Assembly: GCA_044892505.1 (NCBI GenBank)
Contig: CM097882.1
Coordinates: forward strand, 368,652,001 to 368,716,000
Length of the DNA stretch: 64,000 bases
Direction: 5' to 3'
Origin: Schmidtea nova
Taxonomy: Eukaryota
The position numbers were made by a program, and so were the translations under genes. Each line of letters begins with the position of its first letter. Position 1 is the first letter of the stretch. Shown piece by piece: positions 3,594 to 39,075 of the stretch. The notes under the pieces are model-generated. The model did no database searches. It saw only the letters and a list, made by a program, of their open reading frames with translations, and had not been told where the DNA came from.

Positions 3594-3595
3594 AC

Positions 3596-8340: not shown

Positions 8341-8343
8341 TTA

Positions 8344-9221: not shown

Positions 9222-10753
9222 NNNNNNNNNNNNNNNNNNNNNNNNNNNNNNNNNNNNNNNNNNNNNNNNNNNNNNNNNNNNNNNNNNNNNNNNNNNNNNN
9301 NNNNNNNNNNNNNNNNNNNNNNNNNNNNNNNNNNNNNNNNNNNNNNNNNNNNNNNNNNNNNNNNNNTCAATTTGTACAACAGTTTTTTCATTTTTATAAG
9401 ATTTTCAATTTCTTTCCAGGGTTCTTTTAACTTGTAAGATTTTTCATTTTTGAAAATTCCTAAATAATCGATAATTGCACGATAAAACATTTAGGAAAAT
9501 ATTTTTATAAAAAATAAAACTCAGATAATAAATTCTATTTCATTACACCACAAATCAGTGTTTATAACTAAGATATTAGATATTGATATGTAATCATGAT
9601 TATAGATTATGAGACTTGATTCATCACATTTCATACTTGCAACGACAAAAATCATATATCAAGCAATTAAATTATTTAAAAATTAAATAAAATAGACACT
9701 AATATGGCGATCTTCTAATAAAAATGTTATTGCTGAATTGTTTTTACTAGAAGCGACAACCTAGAATATTTCGTTAAAAACTTTCATCAATTCTATGACG
9801 CAGTAAACATCAGTAAAGATTAAAAAACGCTGATTGTAATAATGCACACTTGACACTTTTACCTATTGACACATATAGAAGAGCAGGAGGAAAAACCTTT
9901 GAAGAGGAGCTACGAAACACCTCTGAGAAGTTTAAATCATTAATGTATGATTTAACGCAAGAATTGTGCTTCGAGCAAGGATCAGATTCATCTGAAAACT
10001 TTATACATAAAGTGAAGAAACTGCCATAAATTTAACGTAAAAGAAATCTAGAAATGTTTATTAATACATTTAACTCGAGACAAATAAGTAAGAAAAGAGA
10101 TTGAAACACAAGAATTAAACACAAGAATTAAAATCTACAATAAAACAGTTTAAAATGCTATTAAACTCGTTAATGCTGTAAAAATAGTAAAAATAGTAAC
10201 AAGAAATGGCATTTTTATCGCAGATAAATGAGAAGCATGATGTATTGATTTCATAGAACATAGAATAGTCAAGAATGGACAATCTATAAATAATAAACCA
10301 AGAAGACAACCAAAAAACTAGAAAGAAAGTTAGAAATAAAAATAAAAAATCTAGAAGGGAACTGAATTATAGGAAAATGTAGTTCGCGGTGGAAACACCA
10401 CTAGTGTATGTGTGTATGTGTTTATGATAAAGAAAAAGATCGCAGGATAAAAAGCTTGCATCAGTGTTTATTATGAATTATGGTCCAAAATCTGGCTAAT
10501 ATTTGTCTATTAACCTTATATTTCAACTTTTTAAATAATAATTTCACATTTTCAGACCATTGAATCTTGTCTTTAGTAGTTGTTATAATATTTTCTAGAG
10601 ATCGAGAAATTCTCGAATTTTTCTTTAAAATTTTGAATAAAAGTTAGATAATCCTAGAAAACTATGAAAATATTAAACGCAATGAGGCTTTTGAAAATTA
10701 GTCATTGTTATAATATTTTTATACAATCTCGGTCTATGACATGTTATTTTTAA

Positions 10754-12001
10754 GGGGCAGTTGAAAAAATAGAAAATTTTTAAGCGTTTATTTAAAAAAT
10801 AGAAAAGAAAATATTTTAATATAAAAAATAGAAAAGAAAATATTTTAATATAAAAAATAGAAAAGAAATTATTTTAATATAAAAAATAGAAAATAAATTA
10901 TTTTAATATAAAAAATAGAAAATAAATTATTTTAATATAAAAAATAGAAAATAAATTATTTTAATATAAAAAATAGAAAATTAAATATTTTAATATAAAA
11001 AATAGAAAATAAATTATTTTAATATAAAAAATAGAAAATTAAATATTTTAATATAAAAAATAGAAAATAAAATATTTTAATATAAAAAATAGGAAATAAA
11101 ATATCTGAATATAAAAAATAGAAAAGAAATTTATTCAATTGAAAATATAGAAAATATATAAAATCATTTGAAATATACAAAAGAAAATATATTAATGCAA
11201 TTATGGGAAATATAATTAAAATAATTTTAAAAACAGAAAATAAATTATATTAACATAAAATATAGGAGAAAATATAATAATACAATGTGTAATATTATGT
11301 GCATCCCAAAGTTACACTGGTTTTGTTTCTTTGCATAACTTTGAATGATATGTTTTTGGTCACCGCGGATTTACTGAATAACTGCATAAACTCGCCCATA
11401 CTATCAAAGGTGCTACTGATTCGAAATTCTGCAGCTAATTGATTGCATTTTAGCGCTATAATATCATGTGTATTGCTGGTTGTTGTCATGGGGTGGAAGT
11501 TTAGTTTTTGTAAAAAATCAAGACAGTATAAATAAACAGTATTGTGTTCTATAAAATATATATAATTATTGTCTTTTCAATAATTTCAATAAATTATATT
11601 GGTTTTTAATTGTTAAAATTCGTTGTATTATATTTTTAATATACCAAAAGATATAAGTGATGATCCATTGTTTCAATTGTTTAATTTAATTTTCTATTTT
11701 TTTATTAAAATATTTTATTTTCTATTTTTTTATTAAAATATTTTATTTTCTATTTTTTATATTAAAATAGTTTCTTTTCTATTTTTTCTATTAAAATATT
11801 TAATTTTCTATTTTTTATATTAAAATAATTTCTTTTCTATTTTTTATATTAAAATAATTTATTTTCTATTTTTTATATTAAAATAATTTCTTTTCTATTT
11901 TTTATATTAAAATATTTTCTTTTCTATTTTTTATATTAAAATAATTTCTTTTCTATTTTTTAATTAAATGCCTAAAAATTTTCTATTTTTTACATTTCCC
12001 C
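10754..12001. mobile_element. Non-autonomous MULE/Foldback element with tandem-repeat TIRs and a 9-bp TSD
   Basis: GGGG...CCCC termini. Arms are built of ~29-bp AT-rich units (about 10800-11150 and inverted about 11685-11960). TATTTTTAA is identical at 10745-10753 and 12002-12010. Confidence 0.88.
11295..11489 (-). pseudogene. MuDR-type transposase N-terminal remnant inside the Foldback element
   Basis: FRISSTFDSMGEFMQLFSKSAVTKNISFKVMQRNKTSVTLGC resembles the MuDR N-terminal domain pattern (F....F....EF......A......FKV.........C). Confidence 0.55.
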
Positions 12002-18470: not shown

Positions 18471-18970
18471 TTCGTCGTGACCAGACCCGCCGGCTCGGAA
18501 TGTTCTGACAACAGAGCGCGAGCTTGACGTACTATTTCAGTAAGGCTCATTTCCTGAATTTTTGCCGAGGCTCTCATCTGTTGGGACACTGGCAATGGCA
18601 AACCTGTAACAAATGCTCTTTTGAGCAAATTATCTGATTCAATTCCAGCCAGTGTAGCCAATTGCTTTAAATCAGCGTGAAAAACGTCCACCGGCTCCCC
18701 GTTCCATGACCGGGTTCGAAATTCATCGTAGGCCTTGAAACCGTCCATTGAAAAGGTGTCCAGTTACGCCCTTTCGATTGTGTTGCAGCATCGCTTGTCT
18801 TTTTCTGCCAAATAATCATAGACCAAAAAAGCTGGTCCCTCTAATAACAATGGTAGCACGAGCGAAACATCTTCTTTTTTTAGATGAGCTGCCACCAATT
18901 TCAATTTTTTGAGCCAAGACGAGAATTCACCTATCCCGTCATAGGGCTTTATCAACTTTATTATTTCCAT
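18471..18970 (-). pseudogene. gag: gag N-terminal part of element B (inverted block)
   Basis: MEIIKLIKPYDGIGEFSSWLKKLKLVA...RAFVTGLP... is clearly homologous to gag of element C (38472-38972). Confidence 0.85.
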
Positions 18971-18971
18971 T

Positions 18972-18983
18972 GCCGCGATAGCT
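18972..18983 (-). promoter_or_regulatory. Non-canonical PBS-position sequence AGCTATCGCGGC (element B)
   Basis: Immediately follows the LTR end ...TTTTACA and immediately precedes the gag ATG. Identical in element C. Confidence 0.65.
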
Positions 18984-19221
18984 TGTAAAATAATCATTAA
19001 GAGGAACGAGATAGTGAGCACACATTTATTTAATTAAAAACATACATAAATATAGCGATCTAAATTACCGCAACGTAATATGTTGTCGACAAGAACTATT
19101 GCACAATAGTCTAGTCGCTTTAAGACTGTTACGTAACAGTATTGCAGTATTTTCTTGCACAGTAAATTATAAATTAATATGTGTATAAATCGTAGGACTA
19201 TTATGTCACGATATTTTCCCG
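18984..19221 (-). repeat. 5' LTR of element B (inverted; first ~4 nt lost at the breakpoint)
   Basis: Reverse-complement match to 22182-22419 with a few substitutions. Confidence 0.9.
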
Positions 19222-19226
19222 ACGAA

Positions 19227-22166
19227 GTCATCACCCAACAATGTTAAAATAGAAAGTACGCTCTGTTACAAGTGTGGGAGACCTGGACATTACAAGAACA
19301 AATGTACTATGCTAGAATGTTGGACATGCGGGAACACAGGGCACTCATCCAGACAATGTCAAAAAAGATCGCAGGGAAACGCCAGAAGAGAAACTGTAGC
19401 GCCAGCGGTTTCTCAATAACGTCGGGAATGGCGCAGGTGATAATAAAGCTTAAGGTGAACGGCAAGTGGTGCATTGGATTGGTCGATTCTGAATGTTTCC
19501 AAACAATAGCGTCAAGCAGGCTTGCGAGAAGTAGAGGCGAAACCAAGGATGTCATCTCTGTAGATGGTCGAAGAGTGCATTGCGAAGGAGAGAGCCAATG
19601 CAGAATATCCGTACGCGGATCTTGCGTTACGGTAAATTGTTTGATCATGAAAAACCTTGTAGCAAGGGTGGACGTTGTTCTGGGACTTGATGCAATTGGA
19701 CTTCTTGGAGGCGTTTGGATCAATAAAGAAGGAGTGCGATTTGGTGGATGTGCAGTTTCATCAATTGAGAATGAAGTGAGAATTGAAGATGATGATTTTT
19801 CAGCGTCATTCGATGGGAACAAATGGACCGTATCCTGGAAGTGAAAGGACAAACCTACCCTGCTGAAAAACCATGTCTCAGAATATGCAATAAAACCAGA
19901 AATTCGACAGGAGTACGAAAAGGAGGTCGAGCGTTGGATCAAAGAAGACTGGCTGATTCCAGCGAATTGCAACGATCATGGTATCGTGCCCTTGTTAGCA
20001 GCAGTGCAAGAAAACAAAGGGAAAGTCTGATCGGTTCTTGACTTCAGAGAGCTCAATAGTTTCGTTGAATGTCACACCGGTGACAGCGATGTATGTGGCG
20101 AAAGTTTGAAGAAATGGCGACAAATGGGAGATCAGGAGGTTATGCTTGATTTAAAGAATGCCTATTTGCAGTTACATGTCAGTGAGTATCTTTGGAAATA
20201 CCAAAAAGTTAGATACAAAGACTAACTGTACTATTTAACAGGATTGGGATTCGGCCTCAACTGTGCTAAAAAAATAATGTCTCAAGTGCTCAGAAAAGTG
20301 CTAAGCCTCCACCCCAGAATCAAAGTTGCGACAGAACACTACATTGATGATATCGCTGTTAATACAAGTAAAGTTCAAGTCAATGAGGTCGTCAATCATT
20401 TAGCTCAATACGGCTTGACTACAAAGCCAGCCGAATCAATTGAAAACGCAAAGGTTTTTGGGCTCAGAATAAAACGTGATCGTCAGGGCCACCTTTCATG
20501 GATCAGGGGAAATGATGTCGGCGCAATCGAAAGTGAAATCACTCGTCGGATGCTGTTCTCTATATGCGGTAAGCTTGTTGGACATTATCCAGTTGCAGGG
20601 TGGCTCAGAGTAGCGTGCAGTTATATTAAAAGAACTGCAAAGGGCACGAAATGGGATGATTTAATTGGAAAAGAATGCGAATCGAAGCTGTCAGAAGTTA
20701 TTACTCGTGTCAAATCAAACGATCCAGTCAAGGGAAAGTGGACAGTAAGTAAAAGTGAGTGTGGGGTTCTGTGGTGTGATGCGAGTAGTCTCGCCTTAGG
20801 GGTTATGCTGGTAATAAATAATGACGTCGTTGAGGTTGCTTCGTGACTCAGAAAAGGTGATGACCACTCTCATATAAATGTTGCGGAACTAGATGCGGTA
20901 CTCAAGGGTATTAACTTGGCAATACAATGGGGAGTTAAGAGAATCTAGTTGATGGTGGATTCAGCAACGGTAGTAAGTTGGTTAAAAACAGTTCTGAATA
21001 ATGAAAGCAGAATACGGGTCCATGGAATTTCTGAAACGCTCGTCAGACGCCACCTGGGGATCGTCAAAGAACTCACCGTCGACGAAAGTATATCTATCTC
21101 TGTATGTTTAGTGAAGTCAGCAGAGAACCGAGCAGATGTCCTCACGCGTGTTCCAGAAAAATGGCTGAAGCCTGGGAATCTTTTCGGATGTGTAAGACTC
21201 TCAATTGAGCAAATAAAGGCCCGCCATCGGAAACACCATTTCAGCTTAGAAAAATCAATCTACTTCATTCAATCGGAAAATCCGGAGACCAACCGAGACT
21301 GTATAAAAGAAGTCTTGAGAAACTGTACAGAATGTAGGTCAATCGACCCATTACCGATTAAATGAGAGCAAGGCACACTGGAAGTCTCGGAAAACTGGAA
21401 GAGATTGGCGGTTGACGTCACGCATCACGAGGGATCCACATTTCTGACCATGGTGGAATGTGGGCCCAGCAGATTTGCAATCTGGAGGAAAATAGATCGT
21501 GAGGACGCCCCAAACATTGTGAGAAATCTGGAGGAAGTATTTCGGGAGAGAGGCCCAGTATTGGAACTACTGATGGATAATGGGGCAAGTTTTCAATCTA
21601 ATTCTTTGAGAGAGCTTTGTTGTAGATGGAATGTTAAACCGACCTATAGATGCGCTTATCGGCCGGCTGGAAATGGGATCGTAGAAAGAAACCACCGAAC
21701 AATAAAGTGTCATGCAGCCAGGAGTCATGCAGATCCCCGAGATATCGTCTTCTGGTACAATTCCGCGCCTAGAGATGGAACTAATCAGGAAACAGCCCCA
21801 TCAGAAGGGTTGTTCAAGTATCACTGGAGATTTTACCGAGGAAAAGAAGATGAACGCTCAGTATCATGTGAATATACACCTGGGCAAAGGGTTGTTGTGA
21901 AGCCACGACAAGCAAAGTGTACTACTCAATGGCCCATTGGAATTGTAACTGGAATTAATTTCGGCACAAACATTGAAGTGGATGGAATACCGCGTCAGAT
22001 TGCAGACATCCGGCCATTAGTGGAAGAAGATATTGCTGACGAAAAATCAGAGACAGACCGAGCAAGTGAGGAGGAGATGAAAGTTACAACGCATGAGGAC
22101 AGGCCGAGACGACCACGGAGGAAGCCGCTTTATCTTGATCAGTATGATTTGGATGCATCATACTAA
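19227..22166 (+). pseudogene. pol: gag C-terminus and pol of element B (multiple stops)
   Basis: CYKCGRPGHYKNKC and CWTCGNTGHSSRQC, GGGAAAC at 19374-19380, LVDSEC protease, YIDDI RT, WCDASS RNase H, integrase AVDVTH / MDNG / GIVER. Confidence 0.9.
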
Positions 22167-22177
22167 TCACGGGGGAA

Positions 22178-22419
22178 TGTGCGAGAAAATATCGTGACAT
22201 AATAGTCCTACGATTTATGCACATATTAATTTATAATTTACTGTGCAAGAAAATACTGCAATACTGTTGCGTAACAGTCTTAAAGCGACTAGACTATTGT
22301 GCAATAGTTCTTGTCGACAACATATTACGTTGCGGTAATTTAGATCGCTATATTTATGTATGTTTTTAATTAAATAAATGTGTGCTCACTATCTTGTTCC
22401 TCTTAGTGATCATTTTACA
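22178..22419 (+). repeat. 3' LTR of element B (242 bp)
   Basis: TGTG...TACA, preceded by PPT GGGGGAA at 22171-22177. Confidence 0.9.
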
Positions 22420-22429
22420 GAATTTAAGT

Positions 22430-23030
22430 TGAAAAACCAAACACAGTAAGATTTATTCGAAAGTATTTACAACAACTAGTTGACACAACTTTCGATAATA
22501 ATAAATCTCTTTATAAAAATTCAACAACTGTTATTAAACTTCTATTTCGATTTAGCGCAGGGATAAATCTCCCAAAGGAAGATCTCCCTTTCTTGATACG
22601 CTAATAAGAATGAATTTGATTCTAACTCCTACCTATTTTCGACTTCTGGTCTTGCAAATATTTACTCACTTTTTTCTTCGACCACTATGGTAAACTTTGG
22701 AATTTGCCTCTCATTTTTATACTGTCTAGTTTGATGAGTTTTTCTTATCCTATCAGACTGTTCGACGGGTGCCTCTCAAGTTGAAACTTTCTAATGTAAT
22801 TCAATAATAATAAAATTGCTAACCACTTTTCCGTAAATTGGGCTTTTCGGGTTTCCTTTACAATCAATTTACTGGGATAATTACCTATCTCGCTAGTCAT
22901 CCGCACTTCCTACGCTACTCGGGTTCACCATTAGATCGGGTTCTTCATTAGCTTGGCTTTCCCATTAGCCAATTAACTCTTAATTAATTCATTTCTTAAG
23001 GGTCAAATGTGATATAATGAAGCAGTTATT
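22430..23030 (-). repeat. Truncated, diverged LTR of the ~0.8-kb family 'L'
   Basis: Shares ggaagatctccctttc, cgggtttcc and ttcccattag blocks with 33590-34030. Confidence 0.5.
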
Positions 23031-23155
23031 ATGTAAAAAATGCCAAATACTACGTAACCTTTGGTATATTGTACCAGACGGGGACGCATTCTAATACTTA
23101 TCATTATTTTCAATATTATCATTATATTTAACATAATCAATATTCAAATCATATA

Positions 23156-24423
23156 CGTGGTGCACCCATTAAATACCCGGAATGAAGTAGAAAAGAACAT
23201 AATACATTAGTGGGTTTGTATAAGTATTTATTTTTCAATATGCTATCCCCCCAATCTGTACACTATTTTTCAGCGTCTTACCAGCTCCAAAAAGACATTT
23301 TCGTAGAAAATGGAGAGTTGATTTTACAGGAATTCTTGCACCACCTCTTTTAATTCTTGTTTTGAAGTGAAATGTCTACCTCCTACGTGTTTCTTGAGAT
23401 GGAAGAACAAATAAAAATCACTCGGAGCTAGGTCCGATGAATAGGGAGGGTGTGGGAACCTGTGAAAACCCACCTTTTCGATTTCGCTTGTAGAGAATGC
23501 ACTTGTGTTTATTGGGGCATTATACTGAAGAAAATAGAGATTGCATTTGCTGGATTTTCGCCTGGACTTCCTGGCTTTCTGGACTTGCTCGACATAGTAA
23601 CAGGAGTTAATTTTCACATACCTGTCAGCAGAATCTATTGAAACCACGCCATGGAAATCCAAAGAAATCGTTAGCATGAGAGATTTCCGGTGTCAAGTTG
23701 ATGCTTTTAGCTTTTTTGTGCTCGTCTCATCTGGGAATTTCTACTCCTTAGACTTCTGTTTAGTGTCCGGTATATATAAAGAGAGCAGGTTTCATCAACT
23801 GTCACGATGTTTTGCAGAAAAAAATCTTCAACTTGCTCCAATGTCATGAGATTGGCCTGGCATGAATTGTTTTCACACATTTCACTTGTGAAGAAGCGTG
23901 AAACAAACCGTGAAGAAGTTTTCTCATACCCATAGACTTTAAGGAATCCAAACATCCTTTGCTCAAATTCAGACTGTCACAGATCATTCTTGTTGTGATT
24001 CGCCTGTCAAATTTTACAATATTCTCCTATTTTTCTTTAATGTTTTCACCAATTTCCAAAGGTCTTCCGGCACTTTTCTCATCAAAGACACTCTGTCTAC
24101 CATGCTTAAATTGTGCAATCCAGTCATAAATAGTAGTTTTGGATGGGTTTTCATCACGGTATGCATTCATCAACTCCTCAATAATTTCCTTCGCCGACAA
24201 CTTCTTCAAAACAAGAAACTTTATTACACTACGAAATTCCACGGGAGAATACATGATTATGACGAAAAAATGAATGTCCGCAAAAATTAGACAATATGCA
24301 GACGTAACAGTAAAACAATCTCTATTTCAGTTACCTATAATACTCAAGGAATATATCACAAAAAATCATTTAAATTGATATTTTATTAGACCTTTATTCC
24401 GGGTATTTAATGGGCACACCACG
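23156..24423 (-). mobile_element. Mariner (DD34D) transposon, full length, frameshifted
   Basis: TIRs CGTGGTGCACCCATTAAATACCCGGAA / inverse with TA flanks. Transposase pieces MYSPVEFRSVIKF, IVTVDET and PHPPYSSDLAPSDFYLF. Confidence 0.93.
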
Positions 24424-24479
24424 TACATTCAATGTTTTTAATCAACACAATATTTGCTGAGGGTATTTTATAACTTTAA

Positions 24480-25110
24480 TCCTGTGTTTTCTAACATATA
24501 ACCTTTGACATTTGGGTGTGATTTTTGACTATTAAAATCGTCTTCCTTACCTTTATTGTCGATCCTGGCCACTTGTCTCTAGAATAGTTTTTTGCATATC
24601 TCGTAACATTTATATTTGAAGTCCAATTGTCTATGACAAATGTGCATATAGAACATTTGCGTCTCTTTGTATACGCAGAATCTAAATACTTTCGATTCTG
24701 GTTAGTAATTTTTTTCATCATTTTATTCTTTTTTGATTGAATTCGATATATTCTGCTTTTCTGTCTAAAAACTATTTTTGGATCAAGTACATTATCTGCC
24801 CTAAATTTAAATAAAATAACAAATAATAGAAAAATAAAATATAATTACAACTAAACTATTTGTTAATTATTTAATCTAATTACTTCATATAAGGTATTAT
24901 AGATATCGTTTTTATAAATTTCTTTCCACATAAATTCTGCAATTTATGAAGGCAGATCCACTCTTTTTACTCATTTTTAGAGACTTTAACTTGAGTTTTT
25001 GTTTATTCCAATATAATTCAATATTCTGTGAATGAATCTGTGAATGAATCAGAAAGAGGAAATAATGAACTTTGTCTATTATATGACAATGCTCTAATAT
25101 ACACATCTCA
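24480..25110 (-). pseudogene. Probable Merlin/IS1595-like transposase fragments
   Basis: IHSQNIELYWNKQKLKLK matches the HTQ.IE..W...K catalytic-Glu segment of Merlin transposases. Confidence 0.45.
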
Positions 25111-25456
25111 CCTGACTATGGTAAAAACTGAGTCATGTGGATTGTACATGGTGCCTCACCCACCATACATTTCTGACCTTGCCTTATGAATTTTCACTTC
25201 CGAAAACTGAAGAAGAATTTACGAGAAAGTCTTTAATTGTGCCTATGATTTGCAGCAGCATGTCACGAATTTGCAGATTTCATACCCCAAAACCTTCTAA
25301 GAAAATGGATTTTTGAATTTAGTGTCACAATGGAAAAATTCGTGGAAGTTGATGGAGCTTACATTAAGAAATAAACTTTTACATATTGCTTGTTTGTTGC
25401 TAAACATTTGAATAAAATTGGTCGATCTAGTCTGAGTATTTATTTGGCACACCACG
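25105..25456 (+). mobile_element. 3' fragment of a mariner
   Basis: PHPPYISDLA-like codons and a terminal ...GGCACACCACG resembling the TIR at 24423. Confidence 0.6.
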
Positions 25457-26960
25457 TTACTGTTTCGGTAGAATATTTCTTGTCTATCACTGCAATAAAT
25501 TTCTGATCGAGATTTTTCAGGGTTTACATATCTATTTTAAGCGTCAATTTATTTTCATTTAACTTCACCGACTTCTACCAATAATCTTTCCTGTTCTCGA
25601 TACTCAATTAGTATTTATGGTTTGAGAAATGATTTCAAGACCCTTTTTTTCATCCTTCTTTGGATTTGATTTCAACTTAAATCTTTGTAGAATCTTAAAA
25701 AAAGGATGCTTTGACAAAATTTTTCTACAACCATTTTTTATTACTGAGTATCTTAAAAAAACGTTCAATTTCTAATATTACTTTTGCATATCTTAGCCCA
25801 TTTCATAAATCATTGACCACTAGAAAATTATCCAATAACGTTGTCAGCGTATGTGATTTCACGGTTTTATCGGAACTCTTTGTATTTAAAACATCCATAG
25901 TTTTAAATAAAAAATCAATTAAGACAATAGGAAAAGGTTACAAATCGGTGAGTTGGATAACTCACTTTACTATTTAAAATAGTATCACTAAAAATCTTCA
26001 ATTTAGCCGAAATACTATTTATTAAATGAATTAATTGAAATAAATTTATTAATATAAATTTACAGTAATAAGTTTTATTTTGATTTTTAAAATATTTTAA
26101 AACAGTCTATTTGCTGATTATTTATTTAAATAAACAAACTGTTTTGTTAGATTTCATAAATTTCATATGTAAAATTTCATATAAATAATACAAATAATAT
26201 ATATAATAAATATAGTTGACTTCTATTTTCATTATGATGGTAGCAATAAGTGTTTTATTTGTTTTGGTTTAATGGAAAAACAGGTGTGCTCAAAACAAGT
26301 TTTTTTAGAAATAGCTATTATTTTCAATTAATGTTGAAATTCAGAATTTTCATTTTATTTTTAAAAATAAATTTGTCAAGCAACTTTATTTAAAATAATT
26401 AAATTAGTAAGAATTTTATTCAAAGTGAAAGTGAAATCATTAGTGTAAATATTGGTAAGCAATTTACATGTTCACTTAAAGAACCAAGAACATGGGGACT
26501 TTTATTTGAATGTATTTTTCATTAACACTAGGTTTACGAAACCCGTCAATTTGACGGATTTAACTTTTCTAATTTGAAAAACCTTAGAAAACTCAAAAAA
26601 TTCTCAATTAACATATGTTGGTTATTATTGATACAATGACATGCAAATGATCAATCCTTTTTTGTTGTCGGCCTTTTAATTTTGCGAAAATGTGTTGTAT
26701 ATACCTATTTTTACGGAAACCTGTCAAATTGACGGATTATGAAAGGCCCCTTTTTTCTCTCTCTGGTTGCCCTAATTTTGAGCAGCGAGACACGCGCTAT
26801 ATGTACTACATCATCGGATTGTTGAGCTATTCTAGACTTGACTGAAATACGCCAAGAGTAGAAAAACTGAGGCATGCAAAGTTTTGAAAAGGAATGGACT
26901 CTTACAAATTTTCAATTACGGTTTTTTTAGCAATTTTATATGCCCGGGGAGCATATGAAG

Positions 26961-27219
26961 TGCTGGGTTTATGGGTGGGCTTTTAAACGATTAATAATAA
27001 ATAATTAAATAAATAAGAATAAATAAGAATATTAGGGATGCCTCACTCATAACCATACATAAAAACAAATCGTCTCACTCGCGTGCCCCTAACTATTCCC
27101 TATCTAGCTAGGTTGGAACTGCGCGCGGTATTTGAAAATGATGGGCAGGTGATCTTCATCGCTGGAACTACTTCCCATTTATTTTCACGGGTTCTCGCTG
27201 CCGCTAGAATGTCTTACGC
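26961..27219 (+). ncRNA. Conserved structured motif, copy 2
   Basis: Stems CGCGTGC/GCGCGCG (27080-27086 / 27121-27127) and CCTAACTA/TAGCTAGG with loop TTCCCTATC. Confidence 0.55.
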
Positions 27220-28564
27220 GGTTTTTCTCTCAATGTTAACGCTCTACTTCCTTAAAAAATAACAAAACATCTTTTAAATAGAGATTTGATTTAACTACAA
27301 ACTCCTTAAATTATATAAAACGCAAAGAAAATGCGCTGCATCTTAAAATACATTTATTTATAAAAACTCTCGGAAATCTCCTTTACTAAGTATAACTACT
27401 CAAAATCACTGCTATGTCATTGCATCGTTAGGCGCAAAGATTTCTTGATCGAGTTCGTTTTGAGAAAATTTAAATTAACTCGCTATATGAGCTGTAAAAT
27501 TCGTGTAAACTTCAAAATTATCTCGAAAAATGCGCAAACCTCAAAACCTATCGTTATGTAAAACTCAGAATCATTGCTAAAAAATCTTGCAACACTCACA
27601 AATCCTATCACTCTATGCAATACTCAAACCTATAACTATTAAAAAGATGTTACCAGACATTATCCACCATGTGTAACGATCAAAAATTGTTTAATGAAAT
27701 TATTCATTATGTGCAACCATGAAAATAACCGAAAATCCCAATTAAATAAAAAGTTCTAACCGTCGTGTGAAGCTACGGGGCTCCACGACTACGACTGACT
27801 CGCTTGCCGTGTTAGCAGTCGAGGAAGTATATCTATATCTATAAATAACATTTTAAAATACTAAATAATAAACATCATATAATATCAATTTTCGGAAAAA
27901 TTAGCCTCAAAGTTTTATTGTGACCACTGAACAACAATTTACCCAACACATCTCACTAAAATAACACAAAAATACCCGTTCAAAATTGATCCACACGACT
28001 GGCGAAATCAAAATCGAAATTTTGCTCTCCGTAAATTAATGCCGAGGTAAGTTTTGATTTTGATTTTTCAACATCTATTTATACTTATTTTACTGACGCT
28101 TACATATTTTGTTATTTACATAATTTAATAACGATTTAAACTTACTTATTAGTTTTATTAAGTGAGCATTTATTTATCTTTCATAAATTTAACTTTATAA
28201 TTTGATTTATTTATTTTCGAAAATATTTGTTTTTAATTCTATTAAATTAGGTGTGTATCTATTGTTTTATTGTGCATTTATTGATTAAAACAATTTAATT
28301 TTAAATCTATTTTCATTCCTATCTCTGTTAATTTTGCGATATTTCAATGGGGATTTATTCTATAATTTTTAATAAATTATTTTCTTTATTCTGATACCGA
28401 TTTTATTCTTTGATCATGCTTTTCATAATAACTTTACAAGCACTGATCTTCCCCATTCAATTCTCGTGCGGTCCTTCGTATGTAAATCTGACCTGCACTC
28501 AAATTGTGTGCTCTCCTTTGAGATGCCTCTTTTTTATCGCTTCGACCCTATCACGATCGACTTA

Positions 28565-29856
28565 CGTGGTGCGGTCAAAAAGTTTCCGGCCTACCCTACT
28601 TAACAAATTAATTTTTAATAGAAATAGGTTTATTTTATTGGAAATTTATTGACAATTTCATGTTGAAAATCTTATTGACCTAATCCATTTACTTTATCGG
28701 TTGCAGATGGAAATGTCGTTGCAAGTGCATTCACTGGGAAAAATTGAGTATCCCAGTGCTATTCGCTTTTGTGTTCTTCTCGGCCAAACCAACCAGGAAA
28801 TCATGGCAAATCTGAATCGAGCCTATGGCGAAAAGTGTCCCTCTCAGTCTATATCAAGTTTTGGATTGCTGAATTCAAACGGAGTTGGCAAAGTGAGTCA
28901 GATGAGGAACGAGAGGGGTGATCAACGACTTCGATAAATGAAGATGTGAAGTAAAAATTGGAGAAAAGGGTACTGGAAGATCGCCGTATAATTACCAGGC
29001 AGCTTGAAGAATCCCTACAAATATCAGACGGCACCGTAGTGCAATTATTGAAAGACCTTAACTTCAACAAAGTGGTGTCTCGCTTTGTACCTCGCTTTTT
29101 GACAACTGAGATGTGCAATAATCGAAAGAATGCGTGTCTAATGAACCTCGCCATTTACCGCAAGTATGGAAAAAGATTTATCCAAAACATCCTCACTGTT
29201 GATGAGACACCGTTGCCCCTACATCAGCCTGAATCAAAGCGCGAGTCTATGGAATTGAGAAAGCCGGAAGAACTAAAAGTTTGGAAGTCTCGTTTCGGAA
29301 TGTCGCACATACGGGAACTCATGTTGATTGTGTTTTGGAGTCATAAGGGAGTGATCCTTACCGACTTTCTTGAGAAGGACGGACAATCAGCGGAGAATAT
29401 TACGGTAATCTCGTTGAGCAAGCTCGTTGAAAGTGCCGAAAACCATATGGTCTCCCTCACTGGTTTGAACATGACAATGAGCCAGTTCACACCAGCCGCA
29501 TTGCCCAAGCAAAGCTCAATGACTGTGGCTTCGAAATCATTAGCCACCCTCCATACAGCCCTGATTTGGCTCCCTCAGATTACTGCCTATTTACGGTATT
29601 GAAGAAGCAACTGTGGGGACAGTATTTCATGGATGCATGCGATTTAGAGGAGGCTGTAAATCGGATTTTTGTCCAGCTTCCACCCTCATTTTACCATGGG
29701 GCATTCAAAGCCCTCCCTTGTCGTTGGCAGAAGTGTCTCGATGCCGGATGTAATTGGTTCGAGAAGTAATGGTATTGGTGTTGATAAAAATATAGTTGTG
29801 ATTTCTTGCTTTTACTTTTTTCTGGGGTAGGCCGGAAACCTTTTGACCGTACCACG
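28565..29856 (+). mobile_element. Mariner (DD34D) transposon, 1292 bp, frameshifted
   Basis: TIRs CGTGGTGCGGTCAAAAAGTTTCCGGCC / inverse, TA TSD on both sides. Motifs ILTVDET, LIVFWS and HPPYSPDLAPSDY. Confidence 0.94.
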
Positions 29857-30290
29857 TATAAGATGCGGTTCGTATGACTACTATTGTACTTAACTGTTTT
29901 TATTTTCCCTTGCGTTCTTTTACTGCTTAACGTCTTGTCTCGCTTTTCTCTTTGTATGTATTTAATTTTTAATAAATTTTTATTAAATTTATTTTTGATT
30001 TCACCAGCCCAACAGAAGTAAAATCCTTGCAAGCTTCATATTTATGGTTTAAGAAATGAGGACCTCGTTTTTTACGAACAATGTCAAGGTATAAATTTAT
30101 GGAAATCATTAAATTAATACGTTTCCACAAAATAATGAACGAAGTGAACGTCTGAAAACAGACAAATTTGCATTGATTTAAAGTATATAGAATACCATAA
30201 TTATCATTTTTTACCTTTGATCTTATTTTATTATTATAATCAATAATTCCCATAATGATGACTATAGATCAAAACTTTTTTTATAAAAAA

Positions 30291-30323
30291 ACACAATATT
30301 TCGGAACAGCCTTTATCAAGTGT
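30291..30323 (-). ncRNA. Minimal type-I hammerhead ribozyme variant (U3-A8 core), Penelope pLTR-like
   Basis: Minus strand reads ACAC-TTGATAA-AGGCTGTTCC-GAAA-TA-TT-GTGT: stem I ACAC/GTGT and core UUGAUAA...GAAA. Confidence 0.65.
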
Positions 30324-30336
30324 GTATTTCTGAAAT

Positions 30337-30371
30337 ACACTTTTGATAAAGGCTGTGCCGAAAGATTGTGT
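30337..30371 (+). ncRNA. Second hammerhead variant, the inverted partner in an ~160-bp palindrome (30252-30412)
   Basis: ACAC-tt-TTGATAA-AGGCTGTGCC-GAAA-GA-TT-GTGT. Palindrome centre at 30331. Confidence 0.6.
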
Positions 30372-31720
30372 TATTGTTTATAAAAAAAATTTTGATCTAT
30401 AGTCATCATTATTGAAATATTTGATAATAATTATATAGAATACATTTATTGAAAATAGCCAGAATTGTTACAAACCAAACGCAAACATCACAGTCGATGA
30501 TTATTTATTTCATACAAAGGTGAGGTGTCGATTTCTTCAGTAAATGCTAAATAAACCAGATAAATTTGGCATAAAATTCGGAAAAGGAAATATTTAATAA
30601 ATGGTTTCCCATATTTGGATAAAGATGAAATGCGAAAAACAAACATGCCTATGTGTGAACACGTTGTGCTCAAACTTACTGACCCATATCTAGGTTATGG
30701 ACGAAACATAACCACAGATAATTTTTTTACTAGTCTTTCACTTGCGAAAAAATTACTTGCAAAAAAAACTACTCTGGTGTGGACTATACGTGGGAACAAA
30801 AGAGAATTACAAAAATTGTAAAAACTAAAGAAGATAGCATGATTCAGTTTTCAACAAAACTTTATAAAAGAGAAAACTGCGTTCTCATAGTTTACAAAAG
30901 CAAATTAAGAAAAAAGTATTATTACTATGTTCAAAGCACAGATCAGTTTAAATTGAAAACAGTAATAAACGTAACCCAGAAACATTTAAATATTACAATG
31001 ATATCAAGAATAGAGTGAATGTTGTCAATCAAATGGTGTGAAATTAGTGTGAAAGCAGGATGTCGTAGATGGCCTCTTCAAGTATTTTCTAACATCTTAG
31101 ATTTAGCGGCTATCAATGCATGGATTTTGTATAAAGAGGTCACTGGAGAAAATATAACTAGAAATAATTTTATTTTTCAATTGGCTGAAGAACTAGCAAA
31201 TGGCCACAAAGATAGACCTGCTACTAGTTCAAGTTCACCGTCCATAAATCCCAATATACGGAAGTCTTGACAAATAGGATTTTGTAAAAAAATAGGTCTA
31301 ATAATATTTGTGATGAGTGTAATAAGTATGTGTGTATAAAATGTACACTCCAAATTAATATTATATGTAAAAAATGAATCTATCTTAATAAAAATACATT
31401 GTTTTAATATAAAATCAACCAGTTTCATTACAAAAAACGTAATTTTCAAATATCCCTCAAAATGACGGGTTTCAGTAGAAAAAGTATACATTTTAGTCAG
31501 TAAATCTAGTGTTAAAAATTTTTATTAGATAATATTATTATAGTTACAAAATTTGGTAATGAATTTTATATTTAAATATTATTTTTATAACAAAAATAAA
31601 AACTTTACTCATCGAAATTAAATATTTAAGTTATTTCTTTTTTATTGATTCTCTGACACACTTTTTCAAGATGTGGCTCAAAATGTAGAACTTAGTCATT
31701 AATTGAACGATTTATTGTAT

Positions 31721-32575
31721 TGTTGGGGTCATGTTTAGATAAGCATGAAATAAAATAAAAAGCACAAGAGCTATGTGCAAATCTATAAAAAATACAAAAT
31801 CCAAAAAAGAATAATTAAAGTTCAAAAATTAATTAAAAATTTAAAAAATTAAAAATAAAGATTTAACGGGGGAACTTGGTATGCACGTATGGCAAATGGG
31901 GAGACAAGTAGGAATATGATTGCAATGTATCAGTGAAGGGTCCCCAGAAAAAAATATATTAAATTAATGGAAATTAATTAAAAATTATTGAATAAATTAT
32001 TAGCTATTTAGAAAACCCGAGTCAATGGGAAGCCAGAGTGCATGGGAGATCCAGGATAATGGATAGTTCGAGTAAGGGAAACCCGAGATGAAATCAAATT
32101 ACGAAAATCACGGATCAGGTAAATTGAATTATAACAAATTCAAATCAACAAAAAAATCAAATTACTGAAATTCCTAATCTAATTTCATCTAAAGTCAGCA
32201 AACATAATCAATTTGTTGACAAGATGGAAAACTATAAAAGCGGCACGCAAAAAACACAGAATTTCAAGTTGGTCGAAAAAAATTGTCAGTAGAGTTAATG
32301 ATTTTGTAAGTTAGAAGAAAGTTTTTATATAAGAAACATTCGCAAATCAAGCGTACCAGAAATGGCAATCTACCATTGGTAGACCTACCCCTATCTCTTA
32401 GAAAAAGAGTGCAGAAAGTTTGTGCAGAAACTTGAGAAAGATGTATTAATTTTAATTGTTGTAAATTGTCAAATAGAAATAAACAAAAATTTATTATGTT
32501 GGTATTTAGTTATTTTATTAATTGACGGAGCACGAAGAGTCAAAAACTGGACTTTCTCAAATTAATAACCCAACA
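31721..32575 (+). mobile_element. Solo LTR, family 'L' (855 bp) with 4-bp TSD
   Basis: TGTTGGG...CCCAACA termini. GTAT at 31717-31720 and 32576-32579. AATAAA near the 3' end. Confidence 0.8.
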
Positions 32576-33504
32576 GTATAAACTAACTCAAAGCAATTAT
32601 GTTTTTATTGAGTTAAAAGGAGTAGATATATATATACATCGAGGACACCTAAATAATAAAATTAAGTAACATCATAAATAAATAAAATAATTGAGGGAAA
32701 AGCGATAGGATAAATGAGACTTTCTTCTGGAAATTGGAGAAGAAGAAAGAAAAATCAATTGATAAATGAGGAAAAATTAACAAAATAAATGAAATCAAAC
32801 AACAAAACAGGAAAAGGTCATTAATTATAAACAAGTACAAAAACAGAAAGGAATTCCAAAATATGAAAACAAAAACAAGAAGAAAATGTATATCTTGACA
32901 GCTTGTCAGAGATAATGCAGGAGCTAGGAGGAAAATGTGAAGTATACTGGATGCAAAACCGGGAAAAACAAAATTTATCGAGCGTCAGAAATAGACGAGC
33001 TATAAAAAGGAAAGTTTAGATTAGAAAATATTTAAGAGGCAAATCGTATTGGGAAGAAAAATATAGTAGAGAAAAGAAACTTATTTCGATAAATTGAGTC
33101 ACATTATTGAAAAACTGGTATTGAGAAGAAGTGAACGAAGCAAACGAGAATTAGAAGAGTCAAAGTACATTGTATTAAGTATCAAGTAATTTTCTCATTT
33201 TTCGGACATATTCGCTATAGCATCTCAACATCTATTTTATTTTAACTTCCAGTTCGAATAACTGTGTTTCTTTTTGTTTTTGTGCTAATAACGGTATCAC
33301 GTATTTTAGATCCTCAAGATTTATTCATTCTATATGAATTTTATTTAATATTCTTAGTACTTCATTCTCATCTGTTGGATATCTTTTCAAAGATTCTTCT
33401 AATTCTTGTTTAAGAAGATTATATCTATCTATCTCCGCTAGTATTTGTTCATCTCTTTATATTTGTTCTCTTAATTCATCATTGTCCATCTTGACTTCAT
33501 TCGT

Positions 33505-34282
33505 AAAACGGTTTATTAATAAATAGTCGGTTAGTATCTGACTCTCATGTCCTTTCTTTTTTAAGAAATGAATAACCCCCAACACAATAATCTTTATTTT
33601 TAAATTGGATTCCAATACACACAACAATCTCTATTAACACAAATTCAACTGTATAGCGTTGATTTGCACTCTTCTGCGTTAAGGTAGAAGACCCAATGGG
33701 AGATCTCCCTTTCTGGTACTCAGGAAAATTTATAAATCCGAATTATACATTTTTGTTTCTCTTAGAGTTTCTTTTCTCGCTTCCAATAACTCGCTCGATT
33801 TACAATTTTCAAAATTCGTCTTCGACCACTCTGGCGATTACGGCAATTCTGGCTTGCCTTTTATAATGATTCTTCGATTGATCCTGTCGCTCTCTAATTG
33901 ATTTGTCAAATAGTTAATTAAACTTGCGTCCTGCAATTAGTAAAATTATATTTCCTAATTAATGAATTTTTTGATACCCCGGATTTTCTATTAGCTCGGG
34001 TTTCCCATTAGGTAATTGATTATTTTAATTAATTTGCATTTTTTTAATATTTATTTCTGGGGTTCCCTTTTTAATTTTATATACCTATATTGGAATTTGT
34101 CTCATCATTTAGTATCCTCCCATACCAGTTTCCCCTTTTCAATCCTTATTTTGAATATTTATAAATTTTTAATTATTGTTTGTAATTTAATTATTATCTT
34201 TCCAATTTTTGGTTTTTTTTTGATTTTTGCATTGATTTGTGCATTTTAAATTTATTTTCTTTTTATTTTAACAACCCCAACA
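33505..34282 (-). repeat. Diverged LTR, family 'L'
   Basis: Starts TGTTGGGG on the - strand at 34282. Shares ggggaaactggtatgg, ccccagaaa and gggaaacccgag blocks with 31870-32030 and 46070-46220. Left end degraded. Confidence 0.6.
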
Positions 34283-34299
34283 AAAGCTTAAACTCATTT

Positions 34300-35215
34300 A
34301 TTAATACATTGATTTTTTTCTTTAAATTGATCTCTCGTATTTCGTTTTAAATTCTTGTAATTCATCTCTCAGCATCTTAATTTCATTATTCGACTCTTTA
34401 ACCTTCATACTATCTATTTCTTTTACTTCTGGTTCCCATAAATTACTCTCTATTCGGTGATTCGGTTCGCATATTTCTACAAGCTTTTGCTATATGACCA
34501 TATTTTTGACAATTAAAACATATTATTTAACCTTGAAAATCAACTTTATCTCTTCCATCATTATTAAATGGGCTCGGTAGTCTATCTCTGTTATAATTTT
34601 GCTGATTTGGACTTTATCGTCTACCTCTAGAATTACCTCTATTAGATCCAAAACTATATATGTTATCATCGCTTCTATTAAGATCAAAATTATTCACTTT
34701 TTTAAAGTTCTTCCTATTATTTCGATTATCATTAAAACAAATATTTTTATTATATCGATTATTATCAAAATAATTATTCCTATTATAGTTTGAACGGCTC
34801 TCATTATCTCTATTATATTCAAAATAATTAATTCTATCCTTTCGATTAAATTCTACCTAATTATCATTTCGACTATTCGACTTCTACTTCGGGCTATTAA
34901 ATCTATTATCTTTTTCTGGTGATTGATCTCGACTGGTATTCGGAAAAATTCTTTTTCTATTTTTAACATAATTTTAATACAACTGTTTCGTCTATTTCCA
35001 TGGAATATATCATCTTTATCGTTTGACTCAGATTTCCCTATTTTACTTTCTAATTCTACTGCATCAACTACTGAGTTAAAGCTCTCTTTTGTTGAGGTCT
35101 CAATTATTTTTAATTGAAATCCCAACTTAACGGGGGTAATTTCTATATAGATAACAAGACAAAGTCGCTTTATAAAATTTATTAAATAATCAAAAAAACT
35201 ACAGCTCCAAAGCAA
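34300..35215 (-). pseudogene. gag: Decayed gag remnant with a CCHC zinc knuckle
   Basis: 34478-34520 (-) encodes CFNCQKYGHIAKACR. Confidence 0.6.
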
Positions 35216-35392
35216 AATTCAAATTCCAATTAAATGTATTTTAAAACAAGGTTCTAATCAAATGTATATTAATAAATACTGGTTAAATGTGACCTATTGT
35301 GTGCGTGCTATGTTGATTGTAGAGAAATGTGTGAGCTTTATTTTATTTTATTTTTCTGCTCGGGTTTTAACTACTCTTTAAGATTATATTAA

Positions 35393-35479
35393 TGTTGTTT
35401 CTATAAAGACAAGAAAATCACGCTTTATTTTAAAAATCTATTATACTCAAATTTCTGCGTATTCAAACAAACCTTTACA
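35393..35479 (-). repeat. 3' LTR of element C (87 bp)
   Basis: TGTA...AACA on the - strand, with AATAAA inside. Confidence 0.9.
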
Positions 35480-38334
35480 TCTCCCCGTGATTTTCGTCTT
35501 CGTTCACGTTAAAACTTGTTTCAAAATCATCAAGGTATCGAGGTCTTCTGGTCCTGACTCTAAGTTCATCTAGGCGCAAGTAGTCTAATGTTGGATTATC
35601 AACGCTTGTTAGTCCTTCATCGTTGTTGTTATCCACTGACACTTCGTTGACAGCAGGTCGTATATCAAAATAGTGGCGCGGTATCCCGTTGATTTCGAAG
35701 TTGGTCGATGAATTTACCTTGGTTACACTCCCCTCACCCATGTTGAGGTGCATTTCGCATTTGGTGGTTTAACGTAAACTGCATCGCCAACTTGGAACGA
35801 AGTATACTGTGTCTTCCCTTCTGTATTACGTGCGCCATCTCCTTTCTACCAATATGAAAACACGGGAGAGGATGGAGGCGTTTTGAATTTTTCATTAGGT
35901 GCTAGGTTGTACCAGTATACCATGTCCAATACTCCCTTGTTGGTTCTGGCTGACATACGTTTAATAGTATGATGGTTCCGTTCTATTATACCGTTCCCGG
36001 AAGGCCTATAAGCACATCGAAACACACATTTTACACCCCATTTGTAGCACAGTGCTTTCATTTGTGTTGACCGAAATGAAGACGCATTGTCGATCACCAG
36101 TTCATCAGTTGAACCTCGTTCTCTGAAGATCTGTTCAAGGTTCCGTGTAATGGTCTCCGCATCTTCACTTCTTATTTCCCTCCACAGAGCGAAACGACTC
36201 GGTCCACAATCAATCACAGTCAAATAAAGCTTACTTAAATAGTGTGTAACATCCATAGCCAGTCTCTTCCATGTCTCCTTAACGCTCAACTCTCCATGCT
36301 CCCATTTAACAGGCGCTGGATCGATAGATTGACACTCTACACATTTACCTATTATTATCTTAACATTCTCAAGCGTAACGTCCGGACAAAGTTGCTTTGC
36401 AAAATACAACGTCTTCTTGGCTCCAAAATGATGCTGTCTGTGACTTTCTCGTACCACTTCGCTCATAACAGCAACGGTGCTTACAGTTGGTTCATCACAC
36501 GATTTAACCCAAGTCAGCTATTTGTTACTGACTCTTGTGAGTACATCTGCTTTGTTTTTATCTGTCGGAACAAACTCAACCGAGATCGTTAAGTCATAAC
36601 TCTTTCGTAATTCACAGATAATCTGCAGACGTCTTCGTACTAGCATTTCAGCAATTCCATGAGTTCGGATTCTAGCAGTATCCGTTAAAACTGAATCTAT
36701 CCAACTCCTAACGGTATCGGAATCTGTTATTACAACTAAGTTGCTTCTTTCCCAGCTGATGGCTAAGTTAATTCCCTTTATCACTGCATCCAGCTCTGCA
36801 AGGTTTATATGAGCAAAATCGTTTTTCTTCCTCATCCATGATGCATCTTCGACGATTTTACCTGATATTTCAAACACCACTCCTAATGCCAGATTACTTG
36901 CATCGCACCAGAGTATTGTAGATCCTTCTTTGTTTACGTGCCCCTCACCAGACACCGGATCACTTTCTTTCACACGATACATCATTTCGTCGACCATTCT
37001 TAGCGCGATCTTTCCAATCGAGTCATCCCACTTACTCCCAGCACTGTGTCGTTTTATATAGCTACTCGATACTCTCAACCATCCAGCAACTGGATAGTGC
37101 CCAAAGAGTTGACCGCAGAGTGAAAATAACTCCCTTCTTGACATGTCTGTAAACTCGCTGTCTGGCAAAATGTATCCACGGTGCCACGTACGACCGTTAA
37201 TACTCGTTTGAAGCTGGAGACCTAGCACTCTTGCATTATAAAACTCTTTCGGTGACTTTGTAATTAGCCCGTATGTTGCCAAATGGCTTATTACTTCATT
37301 GACGTTTATTCTCGACTGGTCGACAATAATGTCGTCAATATAACTGTCTGTTGCTTTCCTGATGTCTTCTCTTAAACGTAATACCTTTCGTACTATTGTT
37401 GACATTATTTTTGGAGCCACATTTAAACCAAAACCGAGTCTCGTTAGAAAGTATCCGTTCCCTTTGAAACTAACCCTTTGATGCTCCCATAGCTCTTTTT
37501 CCACATGGATCTGAAGATAAGCATTTTTAAGATCAATTAATATAACCTGTTCGCCCATCATTCGCCATCACCTTAATGATTCGCCACATACGTCACTTTG
37601 TTCATTATGACTACTAACATATTTATTTAGTTCCCGAAAATTCATTACCGGGCGAACTTTTCCTTTGTTTATTTGCTCTACTGCTAATAACGGGATTTTT
37701 CCATACGCGACGTCTTTCGTTGGAATTAGCCATCCTTCTTGAATCCACCGTTCAACCTCCGTATCAAACTTGATCTGTAGCCCTGGATCGATTTTGTAAT
37801 TTGAAATTCTATTCAATAGTACAACTGGTTCTGCTTTCCATTTCCACTTCACGGTCCACTTGCTATCAATGAATACTGCTGAAAAATCACCATCTTCAAT
37901 TCGCACATTTTCATTTGACTGATCCAACATCTCAGCCACGCACGATACATCTGCAATACCTGGAAAAGATACACCAGTCTTGTCAATTTAAGACCACCAA
38001 GCATCCCTATTACGTCCATTCCTAAAATCATGTCAACATTTAGTGGTAGATTCAACAACGAGACACAATCAACACTCAATAATTTACCACCAACAATCAG
38101 TTGAACTTTCACATCACGCATACACTTGACTAGTGATCCATCCGCAGTCATGATACTCCCATTCCGCATAAATCGATTCTTCGCAATTCTGGCTGACACG
38201 ACTGATTTGGAACATCCCGAGTCGATCAATGCTTTCACGGACTCCCCATTGGTCATGACAGAAATAAACTAAAGCGCCATTATATTCGTGCTGGAGTAGA
38301 CGCTGGCGCAAGCGTTACTCCTTTTCGGTTTCCC
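35475..38334 (-). pseudogene. pol: pol of element C with premature stops
   Basis: ALIDSGC, LIDLKNAY, YIDDI, WCDASN, HINLAEL, LAMDVTH, IDNASS and GIIER. GGGAAAC slippery site at 38328-38334. Confidence 0.9.
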
Positions 38335-38972
38335 GACTCTGAATTTTTGGTACACTCCTTTGCAATGTGGCCCTTTTCTTCACACCGCCTACACTTCTTT
38401 CCTTGTTTCTTAAAGCAACGTCCTTGTATATGGCCATTCTTTCCGCAATACAAACATTTCTTATACTTGTCTTATTTTCCCACAACAGCCGAACATAGTT
38501 CCATAGTGTCGCAGTTTACTAAAACTCGGGACTGTTTCAAAACATCAACAAGAGACATCTGCTGAATTTTGGCATTGGATCGTAACTGTTGTGACGTTGC
38601 TGTTGGCAAACCCATAATGAATGCGCTTTTTATTAAAATCTCATTGTTTATCTTGGCCAATGATGCTAAGTTTTTGAGATCATTCAAATATACATCGACT
38701 GGCTCATTGCACCACTTTCGTTCACGGAATTGGTCATATGCTTGGAACATATCTATGGAATAGACATCGATTAGAGCATGTTCGATCTTCAATGCGTTGC
38801 CCTTGTCTTCCGCACTCAAATACTGATATACAGCGAAAGCTGGCCCATCTAGGTATAATGGAATAAATGATTCTAAACCTGCGATTTTCTGAATTTTTAC
38901 CACTAGCTTCACTTTTTGAATCCACTGTTGAACATCGCCTTCTCCTCTGAAAATTGGGATCATCTTGTCCAT
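38275..38972 (-). pseudogene. gag: gag of element C (stop at 38472 before the two CCHC knuckles)
   Basis: ORF 38472-38972 continues after the TAA into CLYCGKNGH...C and CRRCEEKGHIAKEC. Confidence 0.85.
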
Positions 38973-38976
38973 TATT

Positions 38977-38988
38977 GCCGCGATAGCT
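38977..38988 (-). promoter_or_regulatory. Non-canonical PBS-position sequence AGCTATCGCGGC (element C)
   Basis: Directly after the 5' LTR end. Identical to element B although the two LTRs are unrelated in length and sequence. Confidence 0.65.
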
Positions 38989-39075
38989 TGTTGTTTCTAT
39001 AAAGACAAGAAAATCACGCTTTATTTTAAAAATCTATTATACTCAAATTTCTGCGTATTCAAACAAATTTTTACA
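38989..39075 (-). repeat. 5' LTR of element C (87 bp)
   Basis: Direct repeat of 35393-35479. Confidence 0.9.

Follow-up and report, generated by a model that had tools for sequence, protein, structure and literature searches.

A probable primer-binding site complementary to the first twelve nucleotides of host tRNAs in a divergent lineage of LTR retrotransposons from Schmidtea nova

How do two retrotransposons with unrelated long terminal repeats (LTRs) come to carry the same twelve nucleotides where a primer for reverse transcription is expected to bind? The question is raised by a stretch of 64,000 nt from Schmidtea nova (GenBank assembly GCA_044892505.1, contig CM097882.1, positions 368,652,001 to 368,716,000 of the forward strand; the whole stretch is called the window), in which an earlier note had pointed out that elements B and C share AGCTATCGCGGC directly after the terminal CA of the LTR and just before the gag ATG, and had suggested that a fragment from the 5' end of a tRNA primes them there. 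We located both copies and find that AGCTATCGCGGC is the exact complement of nucleotides 1-12 of the host tRNA-Phe(GAA). Judging from sequence comparisons, a linear 12-nt piece from the tRNA 5' end (nt 1-12) very probably primes minus-strand synthesis in these elements; a fuller reading, in which the piece comes from tRNA-Phe or, in sister families, tRNA-Lys, and its U12 end is probably generated by the reverse transcriptase (RT) of the element itself, is one that we favour by a small margin of belief.

A search of the window allowing up to one mismatch finds AGCTATCGCGGC twice, both times on the minus strand (18972-18983 and 38977-38988), with 0.05 copies expected by chance and none of 100 shuffles reaching two. 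The site follows the CA with zero spacer in both elements, and the gag ATG lies 1 nt (B) or 4 nt (C) downstream. The LTRs measure 242 and 87 bp in B and C, respectively, and have no match in common beyond 9 nt (E 0.084); the proteins are 52% (Gag), 53% (RT/RNase H) and 49% (integrase) identical, and as B and C are thus related, the site common to both does not represent an independent origin.

The host tRNA-Phe(GAA) begins exactly with GCCGCGATAGCTCAG, the ARAGORN call starting at its first G. The genome holds 2,511 matches to GCCGCGATAGCTCAG (control, 0), those listed forming a 240-bp tandem array; the view of the earlier note that the complement of the site has the layout of positions 1-12 of a Phe-like tRNA is thus borne out by a real host gene. 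The pairing is bounded on both sides, at U12, where the ACA of the LTR is unable to pair with C13-A14-G15, and at G1, beyond which the next base varies between families. Within these bounds, the sequence of the site imitates what the 5' strand pairs with inside the tRNA, the acceptor 3' strand and the D-stem partner. Nucleotides 1-12 are the only tRNA match common to all nine elements compared, and no conserved second tRNA-pairing patch is common to the nine. Pairing with the leader of the pre-tRNA was rejected, the base at +13 differing between families and showing no consistent fit to the base before either tRNA gene. The parts of the two elements are as follows.

38989-39075, minus: element C 5' LTR, 87 bp, TG...CA, 98% identical to the 3' LTR
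38977-38988, minus: element C AGCTATCGCGGC, predicted primer-binding site abutting the CA and complementary to nt 1-12 of the host tRNA-Phe(GAA)
38280-38972, minus: element C gag with two CCHC knuckles, interrupted, lower end approximate
38334-38328, minus: element C GGGAAAC, putative frameshift motif
35492-38330, minus: interrupted pol of element C with approximate ends, comprising protease, RT, DUF7047, a single RNase H and integrase
35480-35491, minus: element C polypurine tract ATCACGGGGAGA, 12 nt, first letters ATC, abutting the 3' LTR
35393-35479, minus: element C 3' LTR; flanks TTTAT and TTAAT, a 5-bp target duplication with one mismatch
18984-19218, minus: element B 5' LTR, first ~7 nt absent, within the inverted segment
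18972-18983, minus: element B predicted primer-binding site AGCTATCGCGGC
18471-18970, minus: front of gag of element B, in the opposite orientation to the remainder of the element
19217-22165, plus: remaining rear portion of gag of element B, followed by pol with protease, RT, DUF7047, RNase H and integrase; interrupted
22166-22177, plus: element B polypurine tract ATCACGGGGGAA, 12 nt
22178-22419, plus: element B 3' LTR, 242 bp, TG...CA

Element C spans 35393-39075, and both window copies are interrupted by stops and frameshifts. In element B, the segment 18471-19218, which comprises the 5' LTR, the site and the front of gag, runs opposite to pol and the 3' LTR. The normal join of this family is seen at high depth in contigs from two of four public runs, and the ends of the inversion are not bridged by contigs from the four; the inversion is either a real rearrangement or an assembly error.

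Across the genome, CA followed by AGCTATCGCGGC occurs at 686 places (control, 0). The first 30 of these loci represent at least six families with different flanks, the site lying 1-11 nt upstream of the gag ATG, and Gag identity is 28-46% among the intact rows of these families; rows L016, L019, L197 and L200 of the Gag tree are frameshifted and unreliable. When copies of family C were chosen by gag, 24 of the best 30 of 151 matches, the window copy included, had the exact site and six differed from it by 1-2 nt. A sample chosen by DUF7047 covered 80 of 150 matches, mostly outside family C, with an LTR-like pair in 54 and none in 26; among the 54, the site was exact at the LTR end called de novo in 33, exact nearby in 6, altered by 1-3 changes in 10 and absent in 5, and a site starting with TGG was found in 0 of 54. 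Self-priming from the LTR, held to be unlikely by the earlier note, finds no support either, the LTRs of 33 of 33 family copies tested containing at most 5 nt of the site's complement. These counts bear on the idea that the site binds a tRNA for packaging or gag translation, or is an inherited motif, and that priming occurs otherwise, for example from the element's own RNA. The short distance of 1-11 nt to the gag ATG and the kinship of B and C would suit such a role; against it stand the abutment on the LTR end without a spacer, where a primer must end, the lack of TGG and of an LTR self-primer in the copies just counted, and, as described below, the switching of the site between real host tRNAs, the footprints of copy-back and the failure of a pol-less look-alike repeat to match any tRNA. 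We consider a role of this kind highly improbable.

Far from varying freely among intact copies, a prospect the earlier note had raised, the site follows the 5' ends of tRNA-Phe, tRNA-Lys(UUU) and tRNA-Lys(CUU). With its middle three bases left free, the pattern occurs at 1,337 places (control, 10), among which AGCTATCCGGGC and AGCTATGACGGC are two further common classes. All eight AGCTATCCGGGC loci checked carry the pol of this lineage, and their site is the complement of nt 1-12 of tRNA-Lys(UUU), whose start has 682 matches in the host genome; these families pair with tRNA-Lys(UUU) in the same register, so that the primer would not be Phe alone. The AGCTATGACGGC class, on the other hand, is an unrelated repeat, nine of nine loci being without gag or pol and no tRNA being found for it (the wider tRNA pattern omitted the T at position 13), and is a useful negative control. 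A dispersed repeat without gag or pol, L234-L242, contains ACAAGCTATGACGGC.

Beyond this genome, contigs of the lineage are present in five bacterial assemblies (contigs L193-L200), probably as host contamination; tRNA-like matches also turned up in four contaminated bacterial assemblies. Five records from outside the genome read AGCTAT, then CGC, TTC, TCC, CCG or CAC, then GGC, the variation being confined to the bases opposite tRNA positions 4-6; L197-L199 belong to a single contig, the region is missing from L193 and L195, and in L194 the site is preceded by AA rather than CA. The TTC form agrees exactly with the end of a 5' probe for Drosophila tRNA-Phe (PMC7038984). The middle triplet is not the same in sister elements taken from different samples, while families that are far apart within this host have it in common. 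Among viral contigs, 0 of 80 pattern loci tested (of 120 listed) hold pol or gag and a profile scan was empty; one eukaryote-type tRNA-Phe starting GCCTAGATAGCT was found as well. The site can also be traced in protein. Among 156 Gag homologues, 37 have leaders extending at least 14 residues beyond the query start, and 19 of these 37 contain the translated site, as SYRG, SYHG, SYFG, SYPG, SYSG, QAIAA, QAISA or KLFRR, with 0.15 given by shuffles; one residue was added to the pattern after the first run. The leaders QANRA and QAIAG (P0193, P0157) may record further primer tRNAs.

Two candidate footprints suggest that the primer is copied back into the element. In the first, the site of five copies from a Lys(UUU) family is AGCTAGCCGGGC, which is complementary to nt 1-12 of tRNA-Lys(CUU), a tRNA with 182 host matches. 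Of 201 places located without fixing the site, the first 100 comprise 88 exact copies, 3 with the T-to-G change of the Lys(CUU) type, 5 transitions, 3 other transversions (2 of them adjacent duplicates) and 1 unrelated sequence; the chance of three of five transversion events hitting one named change of 24 is ~7e-4. A single clade for the G copies is rejected by the approximately unbiased (AU) test (p 3.75e-5), in which four long G copies were set against 13 T copies with the site columns removed and one short G copy omitted. The second footprint concerns base +13, just past the complement of G1, where 9 of 117 copies deviate from their family, all of them to C and in four families; at positions +14 to +28, 25 of 1,755 bases deviate, one of them to C (p 1.5e-4 for the comparison with +13; 7 of 124 sites were unassigned to a family). 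Addition of an untemplated C at the 5' end of a template is a known habit of RTs, and the two footprints together indicate that plus-strand synthesis would read through the primer to G1. The genes of all three tRNAs stand in large tandem arrays in this genome: tRNA-Phe(GAA) from C1:566906253 onward with a 240-bp unit, tRNA-Lys(UUU) from C3:72780792 onward with a unit of ~419 bp, and tRNA-Lys(CUU) from C2:333381289 onward with units of 739-1,924 bp.

How could such a primer be made and used? The site, a mimic of the tRNA's acceptor 3' strand and D-stem partner that terminates exactly at G1, would be annealed by the tRNA 5' strand, probably with the aid of the Gag nucleocapsid. The RNase H of the RT may then cut the RNA duplex 12 nt from the tRNA 5' end, in trans, much as Tf1 does with its own transcript, a step whose chances we put at about even. 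The plus strand, as the genetic footprints suggest, would copy the whole 12-mer, run off at G1 and sometimes add an untemplated C, and second-strand transfer would rewrite the site from whichever tRNA had primed. The same length recurs at the other end of the element: a fixed ATC stands exactly 12 nt before the 3' LTR in all nine families examined (window B and C; L243, L250, L194, L196, L198, L041), the rest of the tract varying, and thus both primers appear to be 12 nt long. In Ty3, the active sites of the RT lie ~13 bp apart and the tract is 12 nt (PMC5371799), and the RNase H of Tf1 cuts the RNA duplex between bases 11 and 12 of the 5'-terminal piece (PMC7175516). Cutting by the RT is further favoured by a predicted RT-RNase H fold like that of Ty3/gypsy, and by a crude energy model in which annealing to the uncut tRNA comes out net favourable by ~10 kcal/mol (duplex -22.7 kcal/mol, opening of the tRNA 12.7).

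The same 12-nt tRNA front piece could also be made by a host nuclease, whether it existed beforehand as a 5' fragment or was released from the annealed tRNA by RNase P or some other enzyme. All the sequence evidence for a linear primer of nt 1-12 applies equally to this alternative, and the D-stem sequence AGCU, the same at positions 9-12 of tRNA-Phe and both tRNAs-Lys, is a possible common cut site. The primer end lies inside the D-stem, on the other hand, whereas known 5' tRNA fragments end in the D-loop or anticodon loop, and the 12-nt spacing of the plus-strand tract in nine of nine families points to a ruler within the RT. The internal primer end of Ty5 has been attributed to host RNase P (PMC5371799). 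On these grounds, we hold a host nuclease to be unlikely, if the most serious competitor to cutting by the RT. The earlier note's own proposal, a 5' fragment of a Phe-like tRNA cleaved in the D-arm, survives in its register of tRNA positions 1-12 but needs revision in that the tRNA would not be Phe alone and the end implied by the site falls within the D-stem, past U12, rather than in the loop.

The tRNA may alternatively stay whole, with DNA starting from the 2'-OH of U12 to give a branched intermediate like the msDNA of retrons. This would provide an internal start without any nuclease, on an uncut tRNA whose annealing is plausible, and a 2'-OH start has reportedly been discussed for Ty5. 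The conversion to the Lys(CUU) type and the +13 C footprint nevertheless need a plus strand that reads through the primer to G1, and branch points are reported to pause RTs (PMC5399748); we think a branched start very unlikely.

Several points weigh against priming by a tRNA front piece cut by the RT. The 12-nt primer and its cutting enzyme are predictions from genome sequence. The CAC and TCC variants have no confirmed counterpart among eukaryotic tRNAs, and 18 of the 37 Gag leaders are without the motif, many being too short to reach the site but at least four long ones being unexplained or variant. The co-variation across species that the earlier note had proposed to survey is seen between records rather than host by host, the foreign records varying only opposite tRNA positions 4-6. 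Two copies of a second Lys family have changed T to A where the Lys(CUU)-type copies have G, and none of the first 100 of the 182 rows holds a tRNA to match. Both footprint tests were devised after the pattern was seen; inheritance within subfamilies probably accounts for some of the +13 C alleles, and a single Lys(CUU)-type allele could be passed around by recombination. Finally, the energy model for annealing ignores modifications and includes no cloverleaf folding.

The elements belong to a divergent lineage of compact LTR retrotransposons of ~3.6-3.8 kb, marked by DUF7047 and TG...CA ends and distributed over many invertebrate phyla; homologue searches returned 764 matches in one case and 459 in another, named ones coming from Hydra, Argonauta, Octopus, Plakobranchus, Watersipora, Nymphon, Oratosquilla, Trichuris and Pomphorhynchus. 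They have direct TG...CA LTRs, a target duplication (of 5 bp in 12 of 13 family-C copies having both ends and in 26 of 40 other copies), gag, protease (PR), RT, RNase H (RH) and a DDE integrase (IN), as LTR retrotransposons do. Pol runs protease, RT, DUF7047, one RNase H and, after it, integrase, the RNase H following directly on the thumb and a tether being absent; all 40 pol proteins match RVT_3 and DUF7047, 38 have YxDD and 36-39 the RNase H motifs. The PR-RT-RH-IN order with a single RNase H and no tether agrees with Ty3/gypsy (Metaviridae), and to this extent the elements were rightly described as gypsy-like in the earlier note. The term applies to domain order only, the RT being very divergent: none of the 40 pol proteins matches the Ty3/gypsy RNase H models PF17917 and PF17919, the former of which does match element A, and none has the GPF/Y motif. 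Similarity to solved RTs is weak by sequence profile, the lineage profile reaching E 3.8e-11 with Ty3 RT, and 5.8e-13 with a human immunodeficiency virus (HIV) Gag-Pol chain; against part of the element A RT, the E value is 0.003. The predicted RT-RNase H fold aligns with Ty3/gypsy-type models at a TM of ~0.78 over ~420 residues, and a fold search with the whole polyprotein gave weak retroviral RT matches only. The lineage may be the same as a named MolGy or PolGy clade; the part of the supplements searched for the papers on these (PMC6238403, PMC8556966) gave no match. Young families with identical LTRs show that it has been active recently.

The window holds other features besides. Element A (2625-9220) is an ordinary Ty3/gypsy-type element; its LTRs are long and include an internal repeat of 88 bp, and its primer site, at 3596, is of the TGG kind. 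At 10700-12000, a 29-bp AT-rich unit forms two arrays, in inverted orientation and ~600 bp apart, that are like the ends of foldback elements, and an open reading frame (ORF) at 28955-29602 resembles by eye a fragment of a mariner-type transposase, as a candidate. On the minus strand, 50621-56772 contains a TRAF zinc-finger/MATH ORF (55363-56772), then a coiled-coil-like ORF with no Pfam match (54187-55272) and further short ORFs at 51524-52045 and 50621-51217.

Among known systems, Tf1/Sushi elements likewise pair a short 5'-terminal RNA piece, of 11 nt in Tf1, with a non-TGG site adjacent to the LTR (PMC7175516, PMC4600332), and in Tf1 the duplex is cut by the RNase H of the RT (PMC7175516), which for the present lineage we only infer; in contrast to Tf1, the primer here would be 12 nt from the 5' end of a host tRNA supplied in trans, and the LTR has no self-primer. 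Copia, Ty5, Osser, Bryco, Bianca and the fungal Copia/Helenus elements use the 5' part of a host tRNA with an internal end (PMC6317226, PMC10886601, PMC5371799), but those sites pair with the anticodon arm and, in the excerpts of two of these papers, are reported only in Copia (PMC6317226, PMC10886601), whereas the present site pairs with nt 1-12, first base included, of Phe or Lys, ends in the D-stem and belongs to elements of PR-RT-RH-IN order. Standard priming from the 3' CCA, as in Ty3/gypsy and retroviruses, shares the LTR-adjacent site; the present lineage lacks TGG and would use the opposite end of the tRNA. Retroviruses are described as rewriting their site from the primer, Lys3 versus Lys1,2 in mouse ETn being one case, whereas Ty1 and Ty3 are said not to do so (PMC7472051). 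Troyka (PMC12440569), likewise a divergent LTR lineage of animals, resembles the present one in its gypsy-like domain order and in lacking the GPF/Y motif, but has CG...CG ends and 3-bp duplications where the present one has TG...CA and 5 bp. A plant-wide survey recognises three primer types in LTR elements, whole tRNA, half tRNA and self-primer (PMC6317226).

The earlier note knew of no such mode for gypsy-like elements, and no account of the site appears in the literature searched, literal site strings included; neither Repbase nor the majority of subscription journals came within its scope, and an earlier mention there is unlikely but by no means far-fetched. Excerpts of PMC12440569, PMC6238403, PMC8556966, PMC6431247 and PMC12859917 contain no primer-binding-site or primer terms bearing on the site. 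The shared site is real, and the predicted priming by a 12-nt tRNA 5' piece, well supported on comparative grounds, would be a form of tRNA-fragment priming new to that literature.

Overall, we would put forward, tentatively and as something rather less than probable, that these elements form an unnamed superfamily-level lineage of invertebrates, whose RT may capture the tRNA 5' end, cut it after nt 12 with the ruler used for the plus strand and rewrite the site in each round, adapting at once to a new host tRNA and escaping control by 3' tRNA fragments. Tools looking only for tRNA 3' ends would score such elements as being without a primer site. If true, the first twelve bases of a tRNA would make a fourth primer type and an internally cut tRNA primer outside Copia, offering a test case for an RT cutting tRNA in trans and a link between the modes of Tf1 and copia; very short 5' tRNA pieces would gain a defined role, and 3' tRNA fragments would be unable to block the lineage at its primer site.

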